The notes under the pieces: model-generated | What the model was told of the DNA's origin: nothing | Databases searched by the model: none | What the model saw: the letters and a program-made list of their open reading frames with translations, nothing else | Sequence record: NC_054928.1 | DNA length: 64,000 nt | Reading direction: 5' to 3' (one strand) | Origin: Escherichia phage vB_vPM_PD112 | Made by a program: the position numbers and the translations under genes | Part shown: positions 3,709-54,398 of the stretch, in pieces | Position numbering within the stretch: the first letter of the stretch is position 1 | How the letters are laid out: each line of letters starts with the position of its first letter

Positions 3709-4911
3709 TTATTTTGTAATAATGTCAAACTGCTCTTTAAAGCAGAAGCTTGAATCTTGGTGCTGATACAAAAATTCATAAGCTTTTTCGCGTTCACGGT
3801 CATAAAGAGCTCGGTCAGATGACAGTTCTTTAATACGTTCAAATGTTGATTCCATGTCATTTTCATCAAACCAAACGATACCGCTATCGTGCGAAATTAA
3901 TGGAGTATTATCAACACGGAATTTTAAATTTTCGCCAGTAGATTTCCAAAATACTGGAATTGTTCCACATGCACCAAGCTCGAGATGAGTATATTCTAAA
4001 GAACGCTGTAGATATTTTTTATCTAATTTACTCAGCTGATAACCAAATCCGGATTTACTCATGCGTTCAAGCATTTCGCTATTTACATAACGGTCGAGAA
4101 TTTGCGTCGGCAAATTAGGAGCAATTTTAATTTGGTCTACTTGATGAAGACGATAATACTCGTATGGAATTCCTTTTTCTTTAATAGGAATGAAAGCTGG
4201 AGAACGTTCCAGACCTTCCATAATAGTACTTAGTCCTGCAGGTTTAAGATGTTTTTCGTGAAAATCAAACATCTGATAAAAGCCTTTCCATGTAGTAGTA
4301 CGACCAATCCAACGGTTGATATTCATGTTAATTTCAGAAACATCTTTCCAGTAGGTTGATCGAACCTTCGCAATATCCATAGGAGGCTGAAAGTTATATA
4401 CGGTCGGTGCTTCTTCAATATCATCAAACAGAGAAACAGTTTCCGGATACCATTCTTTCATCAAAACTTTATTAAAGTCACCATTATCAGAATGGCTAAA
4501 AATAACATCAGCTCGACGAACAGTTTCTTCTAATCCCAAATTTCGGCGTAAAGAAAGAGAAGAATGGTCATGCTGATAAACTACAACACGAACCGAAGGT
4601 TTAATGTTATCAATAATTTTTTTATAGTTATTAATAGTGTCTTCTTCTACTGAAGTAGCAGGAACTGAATTGATAATTAGAATATCACAATCATTTACCA
4701 ACTTAAGTGTTTTATCGTATTCTTTTGCCAATAAAACCGGAATTGAAAATGACTTATAATCATGCGCGCAATTACGAGTAAATGATTTATCTTTAGCATA
4801 AACCAAAGTTACTTCATGACCATTTTTAATAAACCAATCACGCTGCTCAAGAGAAAATTTAGTTACACCGCAACCTTCAAGACCTCGAGCCATAAAAATA
4901 CATGCTTTCAT
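3709..4911 (-). CDS. agt: DNA alpha-glucosyltransferase (hmC-DNA glucosylation)
   Basis: 400 aa; near-identical to recalled T4 alpha-gt sequence over its length. Confidence 0.9.
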   Translation of the reverse strand: MKACIFMARGLEGCGVTKFSLEQRDWFIKNGHEVTLVYAKDKSFTRNCAHDYKSFSIPVLLAKEYDKTLKLVNDCDILIINSVPATSVEEDTINNYKKIIDNIKPSVRVVVYQHDHSSLSLRRNLGLEETVRRADVIFSHSDNGDFNKVLMKEWYPETVSLFDDIEEAPTVYNFQPPMDIAKVRSTYWKDVSEINMNINRWIGRTTTWKGFYQMFDFHEKHLKPAGLSTIMEGLERSPAFIPIKEKGIPYEYYRLHQVDQIKIAPNLPTQILDRYVNSEMLERMSKSGFGYQLSKLDKKYLQRSLEYTHLELGACGTIPVFWKSTGENLKFRVDNTPLISHDSGIVWFDENDMESTFERIKELSSDRALYDREREKAYEFLYQHQDSSFCFKEQFDIITK

Positions 4912-9724: not shown

Positions 9725-9963
9725 AATAATATCCAATTTTTCCAAGCTTCATCAGTAGAATTACAGCGTTTTAGTATAAGATGTCTAGAAACTTTTATGG
9801 CATTTGAGCACTTTTTAATTGAATCATATTTTAATAAAGCGGCACGAATCAATGTTCCTGACCCCATATAACCGTCATTTATGTTATCGGTGCTATGCGC
9901 ACCGATATATTCCTTTGAATTAATTATATTTGTTATTTTATAAATTATATAATACCTATGCAT
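9721..9963 (-). CDS. GIY-YIG nuclease domain-only ORF (truncated seg-like homing endonuclease remnant)
   Basis: 80 aa with YIIYKITN...EYIGAHST motif similar to segB N-terminus; no DNA-binding domain; overlaps nrdD 3' end by 8 nt. Confidence 0.55.
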   Translation of the reverse strand: MHRYYIIYKITNIINSKEYIGAHSTDNINDGYMGSGTLIRAALLKYDSIKKCSNAIKVSRHLILKRCNSTDEAWKNWILL

Positions 9964-37295: not shown

Positions 37296-37961
37296 TTAAA
37301 ATTTCATTTTTCGACCTTTAAACCATCCTTCTGGAATTGGGTCAGTTTTCTTAATACGTTTAGAAACTTTTTCATCTAATGAATGAATCCACATCATGCC
37401 AAATTGGGAATTCTTTTCACCTTGTTGGTGTTTATTTCTGGCGTGAGATTCTTTCATTTTATTAATAGTTTCAGGAGTATGATGCTTATTTAAAAATCTG
37501 CTATTATTTAAAAATTTTTCCCTGTATTCAGGAGTTGACCACAAGCGTTTAAATACATTTGAACCATTTTTACGATATTTTTCTTGAAGTAAAATATCAT
37601 TTTTAAAACGTGACTTAAACGATTTAGCTCCTTTTAAACTAGCGTCTTTCTTCTGATTTAGCATCTCAGGAATATTTATATGATCCCATCCACCTTCACC
37701 GCCAAGTTTTAAATTATACACATCAGGTCTATTTAAAAACTCTTCTGTGACAATATTTTTCTCGGCTTCAAGCATAGATTCTTTATCGTCAAAATATTCT
37801 AATATTTCTTTAGAAAAATTTTCTATACCATACCTGTCTTGGGCTCTTTTTAATAATTTACCAGAACCCATATATCCATCATCTAAATTTTCGGTAGAAT
37901 GCACACCAATATAAATTTTATTATTAATTTTATTTGTTATTTTATAAGCGTAATGGAACAT
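37296..37961 (-). CDS. segB: GIY-YIG homing endonuclease SegB
   Basis: 221 aa; YAYKITNKINNKIYIGVHST GIY-YIG motif; inside tRNA cluster as in T4. Confidence 0.85.
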   Translation of the reverse strand: MFHYAYKITNKINNKIYIGVHSTENLDDGYMGSGKLLKRAQDRYGIENFSKEILEYFDDKESMLEAEKNIVTEEFLNRPDVYNLKLGGEGGWDHINIPEMLNQKKDASLKGAKSFKSRFKNDILLQEKYRKNGSNVFKRLWSTPEYREKFLNNSRFLNKHHTPETINKMKESHARNKHQQGEKNSQFGMMWIHSLDEKVSKRIKKTDPIPEGWFKGRKMKF

Positions 37962-43864: not shown

Positions 43865-43872
43865 TATAAATA
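43865..43872 (+). promoter_or_regulatory. late promoter TATAAATA for gene 53
   Basis: Exact TATAAATA about 30 nt upstream of gp53 ATG. Confidence 0.65.
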
Positions 43873-43879
43873 GATAATA

Positions 43880-43887
43880 TATTTATA
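43880..43887 (-). promoter_or_regulatory. late promoter TATAAATA for gene 4
   Basis: Exact TATAAATA on minus strand about 28 nt upstream of gp4 ATG; interleaved with plus-strand promoter. Confidence 0.6.
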
Positions 43888-43900
43888 AACAGGAGGGCCC

Positions 43901-44491
43901 ATGCTCTTTACATTTTTTGATCCGATTGAATATGCGGCCAAAACGGTGAATAAAAACGCGCCGACTATTCCTATGACAGATATTTTTAGAAACTATAAAG
44001 ACTATTTTAAACGCGCTCTTGCGGGATATCGCTTACGTACTTATTATATCAAAGGTTCACCACGCCCGGAAGAATTAGCAAATACTATATATGGAAATCC
44101 GCAGTTGTATTGGGTTTTATTGATGTGTAATGATAATTATGATCCGTATTATGGATGGATTACTTCGCAAGAAGCTGCTTATCAAGCATCTATACAAAAA
44201 TACAAAAACGTAGGTGGAGACCAAATAGTATATCATGTGAATGAGAATGGTGAAAAATTTTATAATTTAATATCATACGATGATAATCCATATGTTTGGT
44301 ATGACAAAGGCGATAAAGCTAGAAAATATCCTCAATATGAAGGAGCACTTGCTGCGGTCGATACGTATGAAGCTGCTGTTCTTGAAAATGAAAAACTTCG
44401 TCAAATAAAAATAATAGCAAAATCAGACATCAATTCATTTATGAACGACCTTATACGTATAATGGAGAAATCTTATGGAAATGATAAGTAA
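43901..44491 (+). CDS. 53: baseplate wedge subunit gp53
   Basis: 196 aa as in T4; GGAGGG SD; late promoter upstream. Confidence 0.85.
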   Translation: MLFTFFDPIEYAAKTVNKNAPTIPMTDIFRNYKDYFKRALAGYRLRTYYIKGSPRPEELANTIYGNPQLYWVLLMCNDNYDPYYGWITSQEAAYQASIQKYKNVGGDQIVYHVNENGEKFYNLISYDDNPYVWYDKGDKARKYPQYEGALAAVDTYEAAVLENEKLRQIKIIAKSDINSFMNDLIRIMEKSYGNDK

Positions 44492-46247
44492 TAACCTTAA
44501 TTGGTTTGTTGGTGTTGTTGAAGATAGAATGGACCCATTAAAATTAGGTCGTGTTCGTGTTCGTGTGGTTGGTCTGCATCCACCTCAAAGAGCGCAAGGC
44601 GATGTAATGGGTATTCCAACCGATAAATTACCATGGATGTCAGTTATTCAACCTATAACTTCTGCAGCAATGTCTGGAATTGGAGGTTCTGTTACAGGAC
44701 CAGTAGAAGGAACTAGAGTTTATGGTCATTTTTTAGACAAATGGAAAACTAACGGAATTGTCCTTGGCACGTATGGTGGGATAGTTCGCGAAAAACCTAA
44801 TAGACTTGAAGGATTTTCTGACCCAACTGGGCAGTATCCTAGACGTCTAGGAAATGATACTAACGTATTAAACCAAGGCGGAGAAGTAGGATATGATTCG
44901 TCTTCTAATATTATCCAAGATAGCAATCTAGACACTGCGATAAATCCTGATGATAGACCATTATCAGAAATTCCAACTGATGATAATCCAAATATGTCAA
45001 TGGCTGAAATGCTTCGCCGTGATGAAGGATTAAGACTAAAAGTTTATTGGGATACAGAAGGATATCCGACAATTGGTATTGGTCATCTTATCATGAAGCA
45101 GCCAGTTCGTGATATGGCCCAAATTAATAAAGTTTTATCAAAACAAGTTGGTCGTGAAATTACCGGAAATCCAGGTTCTATTACAATGGAAGAAGCGGTA
45201 ACTTTATTTGAACGTGATTTAGCTGATATGCAACGTGACATTAAATCACATTCTAAAGTTGGCCCAGTTTGGAAAGCAGTTAATCGTTCTCGTCAAATGG
45301 CATTAGAAAATATGGCATTTCAGATGGGTGTTGGCGGTGTAGCTAAATTTAACACAATGTTAACTGCTATGTTAGCCGGAGATTGGGAAAAAGCATATAA
45401 AGCCGGTCGTGATTCATTGTGGTATCAACAAACAAAAGGCCGTGCATCCCGTGTTACCATGATTATTCTTACAGGCAATTTGGAATCATACGGTATTGAA
45501 GTGAAAACGCCAGCTAGGTCTTTGTCTGCAATGGCTGCTACTGTAGCAAAGTCTTCTGACCCGGCTGACCCTCCTATTCCGAATGATTCGAGAATTTTAT
45601 TCAAAGAACCTGTTTCTTCATATAAAGGTGAGTATCCGTATGTTCACACAATGGAAACTGAAAGCGGTCATATTCAGGAATTTGACGATACCCCGGGACA
45701 AGAACGATACAGATTAGTTCATCCGACTGGAACATATGAGGAAGTATCACCGTCAGGAAGAAGAACAAGAAAAACTGTTGATAATTTGTATGATATAACA
45801 AATGCTGATGGTAATTTTTTGGTAGCCGGTGATAAAAAGACTAACGTCGGTGGATCAGAAATTTATTACAACATGGATAATCGTCTCCACCAAATAGATG
45901 GAAGCAATACAATATTTGTGCGTGGCGACGAAACGAAAACTGTTGAAGGTAATGGAACTATCCTAGTTAAAGGTAATGTTAAAGTAGTTATTCAAGGAAC
46001 AGCAGATATAACTGTTGAACAGGAAGCATACATAACTGTTGAAAAAGACACGACTGTTAATGTTAACCAAAACGCAGACATAAGTGTTAAAAATAAAGCA
46101 ACTGTTAATGCTGAAAATATGGATGTCAACGTTGAGCAAGATTTAAATTTTTCAGCGACAAATATTAATTTAAGTGCATCTAATACTGTTCATATGGATG
46201 GCGGGGTTCTTTCTAAAGTATCAGGTGGAAACGTACAGGTTGGTTAA
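44475..46247 (+). CDS. 5: baseplate hub subunit and tail lysozyme gp5 (cell-puncturing device), variant C-terminal beta-helix
   Basis: N-terminal 470 aa match recalled T4 gp5 incl. lysozyme domain; C-terminal about 110 aa diverge but keep 8-residue periodicity; 590 vs 575 aa. Confidence 0.9.
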   Translation: MEMISNNLNWFVGVVEDRMDPLKLGRVRVRVVGLHPPQRAQGDVMGIPTDKLPWMSVIQPITSAAMSGIGGSVTGPVEGTRVYGHFLDKWKTNGIVLGTYGGIVREKPNRLEGFSDPTGQYPRRLGNDTNVLNQGGEVGYDSSSNIIQDSNLDTAINPDDRPLSEIPTDDNPNMSMAEMLRRDEGLRLKVYWDTEGYPTIGIGHLIMKQPVRDMAQINKVLSKQVGREITGNPGSITMEEAVTLFERDLADMQRDIKSHSKVGPVWKAVNRSRQMALENMAFQMGVGGVAKFNTMLTAMLAGDWEKAYKAGRDSLWYQQTKGRASRVTMIILTGNLESYGIEVKTPARSLSAMAATVAKSSDPADPPIPNDSRILFKEPVSSYKGEYPYVHTMETESGHIQEFDDTPGQERYRLVHPTGTYEEVSPSGRRTRKTVDNLYDITNADGNFLVAGDKKTNVGGSEIYYNMDNRLHQIDGSNTIFVRGDETKTVEGNGTILVKGNVKVVIQGTADITVEQEAYITVEKDTTVNVNQNADISVKNKATVNAENMDVNVEQDLNFSATNINLSASNTVHMDGGVLSKVSGGNVQVG

Positions 46248-46248
46248 T

Positions 46249-48285
46249 ATGAATTATAACGAAATTGTTGATGAATTAGTTGATACCATACAATCAGCTT
46301 GTTCAATTATTCCCGAAGGTTATTATAGACGAGTTAAATGGGAATTATACAATCCCAATAAAGAAATGATTCAACCCGATAATGGGGTTGAATGGGACAC
46401 TGAAATTATTAAATTAGATACCCATCTTTACACCGAAAATCCATTTGGTCATTCTTCTGATACATTTACTGAATCATCTGATGGAGAAACCCAAACTGGT
46501 GTTTTTTGTCATAAAATCGGCGTGTATTTTCCAACTCAAACTGCGTTAGAAGATTACGTTGAACAAATTGGTGCAACTTTACTTCCAGGTAATACTTGGT
46601 ATGGTGCTGATTTATCGAAACGTGAATTTTTTAAAACTGAAATTGAATATGATATGTATCGCATTGAAAATCGCGGAGGTACATGGCATCATACGGGTCC
46701 TAGAATAGATGCTAGGACAATGATCGGTGTTAACAATGACTATACAATGTATGTTAACTTTAACGGTTTAGGAGATTATAGAAGAGCATATTTAAAATAT
46801 TATGAAGATAAACCATGCACATATGTCGGTTTAACACTAAATTTAAATATAGATACATCAATTCCCGGTATTCCTTATTCACCTCCATCAATTATTGGAG
46901 AGCTTCCACTTAATGCAATTTCATGCGTTAATTTTACTGCCCAATTTCCATACAATGGCTTAACATCTGCAATTATTGAGGCTTGGAACACCTCAAGAGA
47001 TTCATTTAAACTATATTGGGATATGTTGCCTGGTATGCCGGCAATTAGCGGAAGTGATTTTGAAAAATATTTTAATTCGGCATATACACATTTATCTGTA
47101 GCAATGGAAGAGCTTGGAAATTCGGCAATTGCCATGTGTCAATATGTTCAGCAACAAGCCTTTATGGTTTTTAAAAATTCTGTTTCACAAGTTCTAAATA
47201 TTGTCGGTGGCGGATGGGATTTATTAAAAAGTTTTTTACCTAAAATAACAATAATGGGCATATCTATTGATATTGAAGATTTATGTACATCAACAGATGG
47301 TGTTCAAAAATTGAAGGAAACCTTTGAAAATTTTAATCTGGAAGATACTATTAGTTCAATTTATTCTGCAATGGGTTCTGCATATGACTATTCTATAGAA
47401 CGCGTTAAAATGTATTCGCGGGATTTAGTTGATGCAATAACAGATTTATATGATTGGGCCTGGTCAAAATTAATGATGGCCGGTGTCGCTTTATCAAAAT
47501 TATGTGTTGATTTAGCACAAATCTGGAGCATGCCACCAATTATTCCAAATCCAGTGTGGTCTGTTATCACTTTAGTGAAGGAAATGATGAAACAAATTCC
47601 TCCATTAGATATGATTATGTCAGGTAATTTTCCTGGATTTACTGCTTCTGATGTATATCAGATGGTTATGTCTATCGTATCTGAAAAAATTAAACAAGTT
47701 TATACTAAAATAGAATCATTAAAAACCCAAGCATTGGATGTATGGAATGAAATTAAACTAAAAACACAGGAATATAAAAAGCAAACGATTGAATTTAAAC
47801 AATATTTATCAGGAATGGCTGAAAAGGTTGAAGATGAAATAACTATAGCAAAAAAGAAAGCGTTACAAGAAGCTGAATCCGCTTTAAATGTTTTAAAGGA
47901 TAAATATAACAGTATTAAAGACTTGATAAAAAATAAACAGATTTCTGTGTCTGATGTATTAGATTTAGCTTTGACTGAATTTCGAAAAATTCCATTAATT
48001 TCACAAATGGAATCATTATTATCTTTAGCTGGAGCATCTATCGATGATATAATGAAAGTATATGAAAATAGCGTTACTAAAGCAAAATCATTATATCACG
48101 AATTCACCGATGGCGCTCGGTCAATGAAAGATCTATGCAAATCATTATACAATCAAATTTCGACTTTATGTTTGAGTAAGGTTGTGCAATGGATTAATAA
48201 AATGCTTGGAATATTTGGATTAAGTATTACATTTCCAACAGTATCAATATGCATTCCATGCTTAAAAACTCCTATGAGGAATTAA
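46249..48285 (+). CDS. unassigned large protein (678 aa) between gp5 and gp6; acidic N-terminal region, hydrophobic central segments, C-terminal coiled coil
   Basis: Single long ORF; ATG (residue 26 of track ORF) overlaps gp5 stop as TAATATG; stop 1 nt before gp6 ATG; no recognisable motif. Confidence 0.6.
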   Translation: MNYNEIVDELVDTIQSACSIIPEGYYRRVKWELYNPNKEMIQPDNGVEWDTEIIKLDTHLYTENPFGHSSDTFTESSDGETQTGVFCHKIGVYFPTQTALEDYVEQIGATLLPGNTWYGADLSKREFFKTEIEYDMYRIENRGGTWHHTGPRIDARTMIGVNNDYTMYVNFNGLGDYRRAYLKYYEDKPCTYVGLTLNLNIDTSIPGIPYSPPSIIGELPLNAISCVNFTAQFPYNGLTSAIIEAWNTSRDSFKLYWDMLPGMPAISGSDFEKYFNSAYTHLSVAMEELGNSAIAMCQYVQQQAFMVFKNSVSQVLNIVGGGWDLLKSFLPKITIMGISIDIEDLCTSTDGVQKLKETFENFNLEDTISSIYSAMGSAYDYSIERVKMYSRDLVDAITDLYDWAWSKLMMAGVALSKLCVDLAQIWSMPPIIPNPVWSVITLVKEMMKQIPPLDMIMSGNFPGFTASDVYQMVMSIVSEKIKQVYTKIESLKTQALDVWNEIKLKTQEYKKQTIEFKQYLSGMAEKVEDEITIAKKKALQEAESALNVLKDKYNSIKDLIKNKQISVSDVLDLALTEFRKIPLISQMESLLSLAGASIDDIMKVYENSVTKAKSLYHEFTDGARSMKDLCKSLYNQISTLCLSKVVQWINKMLGIFGLSITFPTVSICIPCLKTPMRN

Positions 48286-48286
48286 A

Positions 48287-50266
48287 ATGACAACTCCTGT
48301 AAATTATCAATTAACAAGAACAGCAAATGCTATTCCCGAGATATTCGTCGGGGGTACATTTGCTGAAATAAAACAAAACCTCATTGAATGGCTTAATGGC
48401 CAAAATGAATTTTTGGATTATGATTTTGAAGGCTCAAGATTAAACGTTCTGTGTGACCTTTTAGCTTATAATACATTATACATTCAGCAGTTTGGTAATG
48501 CTGCCGTATATGAAAGCTTTATGCGTACTGCTAATTTGCGTAGTTCAGTAGTTCAAGCTGCACAAGATAATGGATATTTACCTACTTCAAAATCAGCTGC
48601 TCAAACTGAAATTATGCTAACTTGCACAGACGCATTGAATAGAAATTACATTACTATTCCTCGCGGTACTCGCTTTTTAGCATATGCAAAAGATACTTCC
48701 GTTAATCCTTATAACTTTGTATCTACCGAAGATGTTATTGCTATTCGCGATAAAAATAACCAATATTTTCCGCGTTTAAAATTAGCCCAGGGACGTATAG
48801 TAAGAACTGAAATCATTTATGATAAATTAACACCTATTATCATTTATGACAAAAATATAGATAGAAACCAAGTTAAGCTGTATGTTGATGGAGCAGAATG
48901 GATTAACTGGACAAGAAAGTCAATGGTTCATGCTGGTTCTACATCAACAATTTACTACATGCGTGAAACTATTGATGGAAATACTGAATTTTATTTTGGT
49001 GAAGGTGAGATTTCCGTTAATGCGGCAGAAGGAGCATTGACCGCTAATTATATTGGAGGTCTTAAGCCTACCCAGAACTCTACGATTGTTATTGAGTACA
49101 TCAGTACTAACGGCGCGGATGCGAATGGCGCAGTCGGATTTTCATACGCAGATACATTAACAAATATAACTGTCATCAATATTAATGAAAATCCAAACGA
49201 TGACCCAGATTTTGTTGGGGCAGATGGCGGCGGTGATCCAGAAGATATTGAGCGTATTCGCGAATTGGGTACTATTAAACGTGAAACCCAGCAACGATGC
49301 GTAACTGCGACTGACTATGATACATTCGTTTCAGAGAGATTTGGTTCTATTATTCAAGCAGTTCAGACTTTCACTGATTCTACTAAACCTGGTTATGCAT
49401 TTATTGCTGCTAAACCTAAATCAGGTCTGTATTTAACTACTGTACAGCGTGAAGATATTAAAAATTATCTCAAAGACTATAATTTAGCTCCTATTACACC
49501 ATCAATTATTTCTCCTAATTACCTTTTTATTAAGACTAATTTAAAAGTCACATATGCTTTAAATAAGCTGCAAGAATCCGAACAGTGGCTCGAAGGTCAA
49601 ATAATTGATAAAATTGATCGTTATTATACCGAAGATGTAGAAATTTTTAATTCATCTTTCGCTAAATCTAAGATGTTGACATATGTAGATGATGCAGATC
49701 ATTCTATCATTGGCTCATCCGCGACAATTCAAATGGTACGTGAAGTACAAAACTTCTATAAAACGCCTGAAGCGGGTATTAAATACAATAATCAAATAAA
49801 AGATCGTTCTATGGAATCTAATACGTTTTCATTTAATTCCGGACGAAAGGTTGTAAATCCTGATACTGGCTTAGAAGAAGATGTATTATATGACGTTCGT
49901 ATAGTATCAACAGACCGAGATTCTAAAGGAATTGGTAAAGTTATTATTGGTCCATTTGCTTCTGGCGATGTTACAGAAAATGAAAACATTCAGCCGTATA
50001 CAGGCAACGATTTTAACAAATTAGCAAATTCTGATGGACGCGACAAATACTATGTTATCGGTGAAATAAATTATCCAGCTGATGTTATTTACTGGAATAT
50101 CGCTAAAATTAATTTAACATCTGAAAAATTTGAAGTTCAGACTATTGAATTATATTCTGACCCAACCGATGATGTTATCTTTACTCGCGATGGTTCACTG
50201 ATTGTATTTGAAAATGACTTACGTCCACAATACTTAACTATCGATTTGGAGCCTATATCACAATGA
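48287..50266 (+). CDS. 6: baseplate wedge subunit gp6
   Basis: 659 aa (T4 660); position and coupling. Confidence 0.85.
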   Translation: MTTPVNYQLTRTANAIPEIFVGGTFAEIKQNLIEWLNGQNEFLDYDFEGSRLNVLCDLLAYNTLYIQQFGNAAVYESFMRTANLRSSVVQAAQDNGYLPTSKSAAQTEIMLTCTDALNRNYITIPRGTRFLAYAKDTSVNPYNFVSTEDVIAIRDKNNQYFPRLKLAQGRIVRTEIIYDKLTPIIIYDKNIDRNQVKLYVDGAEWINWTRKSMVHAGSTSTIYYMRETIDGNTEFYFGEGEISVNAAEGALTANYIGGLKPTQNSTIVIEYISTNGADANGAVGFSYADTLTNITVININENPNDDPDFVGADGGGDPEDIERIRELGTIKRETQQRCVTATDYDTFVSERFGSIIQAVQTFTDSTKPGYAFIAAKPKSGLYLTTVQREDIKNYLKDYNLAPITPSIISPNYLFIKTNLKVTYALNKLQESEQWLEGQIIDKIDRYYTEDVEIFNSSFAKSKMLTYVDDADHSIIGSSATIQMVREVQNFYKTPEAGIKYNNQIKDRSMESNTFSFNSGRKVVNPDTGLEEDVLYDVRIVSTDRDSKGIGKVIIGPFASGDVTENENIQPYTGNDFNKLANSDGRDKYYVIGEINYPADVIYWNIAKINLTSEKFEVQTIELYSDPTDDVIFTRDGSLIVFENDLRPQYLTIDLEPISQ

Positions 50267-54358: not shown

Positions 54359-54363
54359 ATTAA

Positions 54364-54388
54364 GGGAGCCCATGGGCTCCCTTTTTTC
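54364..54388 (+). terminator. rho-independent terminator after gene 8
   Basis: GGGAGCCCATGGGCTCCC perfect hairpin followed by TTTTTT. Confidence 0.7.
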
Positions 54389-54390
54389 TT

Positions 54391-54398
54391 TATAAATA
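54391..54398 (+). promoter_or_regulatory. late promoter TATAAATA for gene 9
   Basis: Exact TATAAATA directly after terminator, about 25 nt upstream of gp9 ATG. Confidence 0.65.

Follow-up and report, generated by a model that had tools for sequence, protein, structure and literature searches.

A putative non-PAAR spike tip protein paired with a foreign gp5 end in a T4-type Escherichia phage

The window analyzed here is a stretch of 64,000 nucleotides (nt) from Escherichia phage vB_vPM_PD112 (sequence record NC_054928.1). On its + strand, between genes 5 and 6, it carries a 678-codon open reading frame (ORF; positions 46249 to 48285), which has a product of 77 kDa and belongs to the phrog_5296/RB43 orf205w family. 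We think it likely that this ORF encodes a spike tip protein that is not of the PAAR type, that is carried on the end of the gp5 beta-helix, and that was acquired together with a matching gp5 end. A contractile-tail phage makes its first contact with the host envelope through the spike tip. The orf205w-like family would mean that T4-like phages have two unrelated kinds of tip, the second of them much larger, and the window suggests that such a large tip can enter a T4 backbone provided that the last 88 residues of gp5 come along. A first-pass annotation, made from the letters alone, had suggested a replacement spike tip, a cargo or ejected protein, or an oriE-region function. The replacement spike tip is the most plausible of these, as it agrees with the proposal made for RB43 orf205w (PMC12407873) and with the co-occurrence and co-transfer described below.

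The proposal that RB43 orf205w is a spike tip is already known, so that this kind of protein has been described, although it is unproven. Mattenberger, Leiman, Belin, et al. (bioRxiv 2025, revised 2026; PMC12407873) describe T4 gp5.4, for which they give PDB 4KU0, as a PAAR-type spike tip and report that competitive fitness, as well as DNA injection into deep-rough lipopolysaccharide mutants, depends on gp5.4. The same authors report that gene 5.4 is missing from RB43, RB16, and Lw1, that orf205w occupies the 5.4 locus of RB43 and is proposed as a unique spike tip protein, and that at the spike tip of the RB43 baseplate a 17.7 Å cryo-electron microscopy map shows a larger body, which they propose is orf205w (PMC12407873). 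Their AlphaFold model of orf205w has low confidence (PMC12407873). What is new here, at the level of sequence comparison, is a sharply bounded natural swap of a gp5 end plus the ORF and a strict reciprocal pairing of the two across genera. Also new is a confident predicted model in which the N-terminal domain lacks a known fold.

A replacement cassette between gene 5 and gene 6

The ORF fills the interval between gp5 and gp6, as first annotated. It runs from the ATG at 46249 to the TAA at 48283 to 48285, one base before the gp6 ATG at 48287. Its ATG had also been described as overlapping the gp5 stop codon; the string TAATATG is present, but one T separates the gp5 stop (TAA, 46245 to 46247) from the ATG. 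An in-frame GTG upstream, at 46174, would yield a protein of 703 amino acids. We place the start at 46249 because 58 homologues align from a common MNY N terminus. By comparative evidence the ORF is a real gene: it has 65 homologues with 29 to 100% identity, nearly all of them full length (664 to 764 amino acids), and relative to the Dhakavirus copy the nonsynonymous divergence (dN) is 0.22 with synonymous divergence (dS) saturated. Because of this saturation, a dN/dS ratio against the Dhakavirus copy is not computable.

Judged by its DNA, the window is Tequatrovirus, and the ORF is 99.3 to 99.9% identical at the DNA level to that of six Tequatrovirus isolates (BYEP01, SG1, sutha, JEP6, F26, and G8). 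Compared with T4, 2,295 bases on the + strand (45982 to 48276) are foreign, while the flanking DNA is T4-like, with 95.6% identity to T4 both at 43901 to 45981 and at 48277 to 50266. We refer to these 2,295 bases as the replacement cassette. The left junction is at gp5 codon 503 and the right junction is at the gene 6 ribosome-binding site, GAGGA, which lies inside the last codons of the ORF. The G+C content of the cassette is 32.3%, against 39% for gene 5 where it is T4-like. The cassette holds a different gp5 beta-helix end (residues 503 to 590) and the 678-amino-acid ORF, and its counterpart in T4, which is ~1.6 kb, holds gp5 residues 503 to 575, 5.1, segC, 5.3, and 5.4.

The change in gene 5 (44475 to 46247, + strand), which encodes the 590-amino-acid baseplate hub and tail lysozyme spike protein gp5, is abrupt. 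Residues 1 to 502 are T4-like; identity to T4 gp5 is 94% over residues 1 to 543 and is ~97% in the segments that precede residue 503. The swapped beta-helix end, residues 503 to 590 (45982 to 46247, + strand), finishes in ...SKVSGGNVQVG. It is ~90% identical to the end of Dhakavirus E33 gp5 and clearly related to that of RB43, and it is unrelated to the T4 end. Gene 6 (48287 to 50266, + strand), which encodes the baseplate wedge protein gp6, is again T4-like, with 99.5% identity to T4 gp6.

A search for a recent donor gave Dhakavirus as the best nonidentical DNA match of the whole cassette, at only 71% nucleotide identity, and the donor lineage is therefore unsequenced. The closest nonidentical relatives of the ORF itself are likewise the Dhakavirus copies (72% amino acid and 71% nucleotide identity) and not RB43. 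The cassette is present in 8 records (6 phages), compared with ~700 phage records with a gp5.4 at least 90% identical to that of T4, which makes it a rare variant among the close relatives of T4.

The content of the T4 interval had been given in the first-pass annotation as 5.1/repEB, 5.3, and 5.4. Genes 5.1, 5.3, and 5.4 are there, but so is segC (the four together span ~1.35 kb), and repEB, like repEA, is antisense inside gene 5 and outside the gp5-gp6 interval. Since T4 oriE, repEA, and repEB fall in a stretch of gene 5 that the swap left untouched, the suggested oriE-region function is not supported.

The ORF shares its position, and a comparable total length, with T4 5.1-segC-5.3-5.4, so that it could in principle be an unsplit or fused version of 5.1, 5.3, and 5.4. 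However, these three T4 genes are undetectable in the window by tblastn (best E value, 0.5), and no T4 protein had been recognized in the ORF in the first-pass annotation. Profile-profile comparison of the ORF family by hhalign gives a probability of 0.1% against a PAAR/gp5.4 alignment and 0.5% against gp5.1, and there is no PAAR repeat signature (no PF05488 match) in the ORF. A fusion of 5.1, 5.3, and 5.4 is refuted at this level of sensitivity, and we see virtually no chance that it is correct.

The replaced T4 segment carries segC, a gene for a GIY-YIG homing endonuclease, and, within 5.1, a late-promoter motif; the cassette has neither. The presence of segC in the replaced interval may help account for this locus being a recombination hot spot. 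Two segC-like GIY-YIG homing endonuclease homologues lie elsewhere in the window on the - strand, at 37686 to 37958 (55% identity to T4 SegC) and at 9826 to 9960 (51% identity), both over partial lengths. By coordinate mapping, the former is the homing endonuclease annotated among the tRNA genes of G8.

Exclusion of PAAR and pairing with the gp5 end

The first-pass annotation had linked the ORF to the divergent end of the gp5 needle next door, and both co-occurrence and co-transfer bear out this link. We count four lines of evidence, which we treat as independent: the lack of PAAR where the ORF is found, the count of gp5 ends, reciprocal scans, and the chimera in the window. First, no PAAR match was found in 16 loci that carry the ORF family. 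A gp5.4 hidden Markov model (HMM) searched against six-frame ORFs of the complete G8 genome and of the window gave a best E value of 1.8, compared with 7e-57 for the T4 control. T4 gp5.4 and the ORF are mutually exclusive across genomes.

Second, we drew 58 gp5 loci from IMG/VR with a gp5 query. In 8 of the 58, gp5 ends in ...GG(T/N)VQVG, and all 8 have the ORF (in one of these, G8, the ORF was missed by the script filter and its presence was shown separately). A PAAR gene is present in all 50 of the loci with other gp5 ends. Third, the same 12 contigs are recovered whether the scan is anchored on the ORF or on the gp5 end. In 12 IMG/VR loci the gap from gp5 to the ORF is -1 to 10 nt. The most distant family member, from a metagenome and with ~30% identity, follows a gp5 fragment that ends in ...TGGTVSVG and precedes gp25, gp6, gp7, and gp8. 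Across the family, the associated gp5 end diverges from that of T4 and finishes in ...GG(T/N)V(Q/S)VG.

Fourth, in the PD112 window the gp5 end and the ORF have moved jointly into a T4 backbone. This chimera is an independent event. It sets the minimal cognate module as gp5 residues 503 to 590 plus the ORF, and it is genetic support for the tip assignment that does not depend on the low-resolution RB43 map.

The family reaches well beyond Tequatrovirus. The ORF matches phrog_5296 ("unknown function") with an E value of 0, residues 1 to 673 aligning with profile positions 1 to 684 of 685, and by tblastn it is 41.9% identical to RB43 ORF205w (YP_239181.1) over residues 1 to 673 (E value, 1e-157). 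A tblastn search with the ORF found 214 phage records, 212 of which cover at least 80% of the query. The loci that we opened are those of Tequatrovirus SG1 and G8, Dhakavirus E33, Pseudotevenvirus RB43, and Slopekvirus phT4A and KP15 (the last counted with Slopekvirus by DNA similarity), and in every one of them the ORF is flanked by gp5 and gp6. Further matches come from phages of Proteus, Providencia, Morganella, Cronobacter, Citrobacter, and Enterobacter. When 1.84 billion representative proteins were searched exhaustively with a profile, only ~8 full-length clusters plus fragments were returned, with no relatives in bacteria, type VI secretion systems, or extracellular contractile injection systems. 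On these searches, the orf205w-like family appears to be confined to T4-like phages. Membership in a well-annotated, conserved T-even family had been named as an argument against the first reading, and it holds by half: conservation in several Straboviridae genera is evident, but the annotation is almost everywhere "hypothetical protein."

The phT4A homologue (NC_055712.1) is annotated as 485 amino acids, and tblastn covers residues 190 to 673 only. We rejected a natural N-terminal truncation, since a run of 100 N at 3901 to 4000 of the phT4A locus stands for ~544 bp of KP15. The phT4A copy is short because of this assembly gap and is not a natural variant.

The PD112 ORF and RB43 orf205w are alike in full-length homology, in occupying the same gp5-gp6 slot in a genome that lacks 5.4, in the type of gp5 end (...TKITGGTVQVG in RB43, compared with ...SKVSGGNVQVG in the window), and in having a predicted alpha/beta N-terminal part followed by an all-helical remainder. 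They differ in that the PD112 copy belongs to a sharply bounded recombinant cassette within a backbone that is genuinely T4-type (Tequatrovirus), and in that the AlphaFold2 model obtained here is confident whereas that of the preprint is not.

With T4 gp5.4 (PF05488) the ORF shares the genomic slot and the presumed job, which is to cap the blunt end of the gp5 beta-helix and lead membrane penetration. In contrast, the two have no sequence or profile similarity, and they differ in length (678 compared with 97 residues) and in fold, gp5.4 being a small beta cone and the ORF product a predicted alpha/beta domain plus a helical bundle. The PAAR-like cone raised in the first-pass annotation is not supported, and the predicted ORF product does not have a small conical beta fold of the PAAR type. 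The His triad of the His3Cys metal site of gp5.4 is not conserved in the ORF family; four cysteines (C18, C190, C226, and C668) are conserved instead.

Predicted architecture and the resemblance to tape measure proteins

The AlphaFold2 model of the ORF product, built from a 59-sequence alignment, has a mean predicted local distance difference test score (pLDDT) of 87 and a predicted template modeling score (pTM) of 0.78. The composition first reported for the protein (an acidic N-terminal region, hydrophobic central segments, and a C-terminal coiled coil of roughly 200 residues) is approximately right. Residues 1 to 100 include 17 acidic and 6 basic residues, the moderately hydrophobic stretches are at 407 to 426 and 651 to 674, and residues 285 to 655 are nearly all helical in the model, with helices at 285 to 319, 389 to 426, 466 to 520, 529 to 566, and 622 to 655.

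Four regions can be distinguished, all on the + strand. The predicted N-terminal alpha/beta domain (residues 1 to 284; 46249 to 47100) has a pLDDT of 96 to 98 over residues ~20 to 200, and no structural neighbor of it was found in PDB. The conserved helical core (residues 285 to 470; 47101 to 47658), which includes the moderately hydrophobic helix at 407 to 426, is the best-conserved part; its residues 381 to 470 are 91% identical to the closest nonidentical homologue. The variable long helical region (residues 471 to 600; 47659 to 48048), with the helices at 466 to 520 and 529 to 566, is the least conserved. The remainder (48049 to 48285) comprises a conserved C-terminal helix at 622 to 655, a hydrophobic beta-strand at 664 to 673, and the stop codon. 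Conservation peaks at residues 381 to 470 and 621 to 660 and is lowest in the helices at 471 to 600.

The C-terminal strand appears to complete the sheet of the N-terminal domain, because strand 224 to 232 is present only in the full-length model and the pLDDT of residues 211 to 250 drops when the C-terminal part is left out. C18 and C190 (codons at 46300 and 46816) are invariant (59/59 sequences), and C226 and C668 (codons at 46924 and 48250) are near-invariant (56/59 each). Three of these are in the N-terminal domain and one is in the C-terminal strand, and the four might form a metal site that joins both ends of the protein.

The protein matched nothing in Pfam or NCBIfam. Sequence searches of PDB, with the single protein and with the profile, gave only coiled-coil noise, e.g., Hbl B (E value, 0.013) and influenza HA2. 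Foldseek of the full-length model against PDB gave nothing at an E value of ≤0.001, and its best match was to ABC-transporter helices. We took these and other full-length fold matches, which are generic helical hairpins, to reflect generic helix and not homology.

Long helices also underlie a different reading of the ORF, as a tape-measure-like protein internal to the tail, packed in the hub or tube lumen and ejected to help form a channel through the envelope, with no capping of the spike. About 370 residues of the protein are in long helices, four tape-measure PHROGs match it weakly (E values of 1e-5 to 1.5e-4), and three distant HMM matches (P0073, P0075, and P0077) are to genuine tape measure proteins, which have PF10145. 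Moreover, homologues in, e.g., Klebsiella phages Roth22, Roth88, and KP1 and Raoultella phage M26a are labeled "tail length tape measure protein" or "baseplate hub structural protein." However, the resemblance stops short of the PhageMin_Tail domain and is limited to helical repeats that are amphipathic and apolipoprotein-like, and only residues 471 to 600 weakly resemble the amphipathic helical repeats of tape measure proteins. The ORF has no tape-measure core domain (e.g., PF10145) and no strong match to such a family. Its neighborhood is also different: it is not the sole tape-measure gene among the tube and hub genes, at the position of T4 gene 29, and the role is filled by a T4-type gp29 that is present and intact elsewhere in the sister genome G8. 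A lumen protein would have no reason to travel with the gp5 end and to exclude PAAR, and the extra density in RB43 is outside, at the tip (PMC12407873). We therefore give this reading little chance of being correct. The tape-measure label most likely stems from weak PHROG matches via the amphipathic helices and is probably wrong, and several GenBank records accordingly appear to mislabel homologues as tape measure proteins.

Proposed placement on the spike and expression of the ORF

In the mechanism that we propose, the 77-kDa protein would cap the gp5 trimer at the blunt C-terminal end of its beta-helix, the place taken in T4 by the 97-residue PAAR protein gp5.4. The last 88 residues of gp5 would be its cognate docking platform, and this platform and the ORF were gained jointly by recombination, with the left crossover inside gene 5 and the right crossover at the gene 6 ribosome-binding site. 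Synthesis of the protein would be late, from the 53-5-ORF-6-7-8 transcript, and it would be incorporated along with the hub. At sheath contraction it would be the first part of the virion to be driven into the outer membrane, and it would enter the periplasm with the spike. The fast-evolving helices at 471 to 600 are the best candidate for a host-facing surface, and for a gp5-facing surface the best candidates are the conserved core and the C-terminal strand, singly or together. We infer the location on the spike tip from the low-resolution RB43 map in the literature together with genetics, and the binding to the blunt gp5 end from pairing and co-transfer; the same footing applies to the copy number of the protein and to any role that it has beyond capping.

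Several observations weigh against this placement. Shared ancestry inflates the pairing statistics, both the gp5-end count and the reciprocal scans, and the truly independent pairing events are few, namely, the Tequatrovirus swap and a deep lineage split. The protein is ~8 times larger than a PAAR cap, and no pseudo-threefold feature was detected in it. The RB43 map is at 17.7 Å with C6 symmetry imposed, the assignment is called "possible" by the preprint authors, and they could not produce an orf205w-gp5 complex (PMC12407873). We found no virion mass spectrometry identification of any orf205w-like family member in the literature, and in the virion proteome of Morganella phage MP1 no entry falls between the DNA end protector and gp6, although gp5 was missed in it too. 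The papers on KP15/KP27 and on vB_EcRAM-01 report no mass spectrometry, and a virion proteomics study of Jiaodavirus concerns phages of a different genus, in which the presence of the ORF was not checked.

Some of these observations would fit an assembly factor for the hub or baseplate that acts on the gp5 end, e.g., a chaperone of the divergent beta-helix, and that is not kept in the virion. The ORF belongs to a late morphogenetic operon and has a link to the gp5 end, its incorporation into virions is unproven, and a recombinant orf205w-gp5 complex failed to form in the preprint (PMC12407873). Nevertheless, T4 gp5 needs no assembly factor of this kind, and a 77-kDa chaperone for a segment of 88 residues is unlikely. 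Buth et al. in 2015 reportedly found that the gp5 beta-helix folds on its own. An assembly factor would also leave the spike uncapped, yet RB43 has a larger tip body (PMC12407873), and the exclusion of PAAR would be unexplained. For these reasons, we judge an assembly factor improbable.

If the protein is indeed a spike tip, it might do more than cap the spike: it could be delivered and act on membranes, as the phage equivalent of type VI spikes loaded with effectors, and with a previously unseen fold. The amphipathic helices at 471 to 600 and the conserved, moderately hydrophobic core helices (~389 to 447) would open on contact with lipid, in the manner of apolipophorin-type bundles, alpha-pore-forming toxins, or type III translocators, and would breach or remodel one of the two membranes, outer or inner, so that DNA can pass. 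Alternatively, they would engage a periplasmic or inner-membrane host factor unlike that of T4. The four-cysteine metal site would tie the C-terminal strand to the N-terminal domain and so hold the body together. We offer this extension tentatively and think that it is rather unlikely to be right.

Other contractile systems have tips that bear comparison with a spike tip of this kind. Extended PAAR proteins and "evolved" VgrG proteins of type VI secretion, the tips of which carry effector domains, also place a large extra body on a gp5/VgrG-like spike tip, and there too the tip and its cognate spike end are exchanged as one module. Unlike them, the ORF product has no PAAR adaptor and no recognizable toxin or enzyme domain, and its context is a phage virion. 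The apex domains of P2 gpV and phi92 gp138 are an alternative, non-PAAR way of sharpening the spike of a contractile tail, but these are short, iron-binding (HxH), and within the spike chain, whereas the ORF encodes a separate 77-kDa polypeptide. No HxH motif is present near the C terminus of PD112 gp5.

T4 and G8, SG1, or BYEP01 form an almost isogenic pair for the effects of the tip on host range, penetration, and resistance. The ORF is a good experimental lead for spike-tip biology.

Expression of the ORF as part of the baseplate-hub operon, with no promoter ahead of it, had been proposed in the first-pass annotation, and this holds. A T4-type late promoter motif, TATAAATA, is at 43865 to 43872 (+ strand), upstream of gene 53, and the next one on the + strand is at 54391; these are the only two in the region. 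A strong terminator-like hairpin at 54362 to 54383 (+ strand), after gene 8, marks the end of the late unit. Based on the positions of these motifs and of the hairpin, the ORF is internal to a 53-5-ORF-6-7-8 late unit.

Two side observations concern other loci. In G8, the "baseplate hub distal subunit" at the position of T4 gp28, which lies outside the window, is annotated as two separate coding sequences; either the gene is split or the annotation or the sequencing could be at fault. In the window, late-promoter motifs on the + strand (43865) and on the - strand (43880) diverge within the 47-nt gap between genes 4 and 53, and 43865 to 43887 is a compact divergent late control region.

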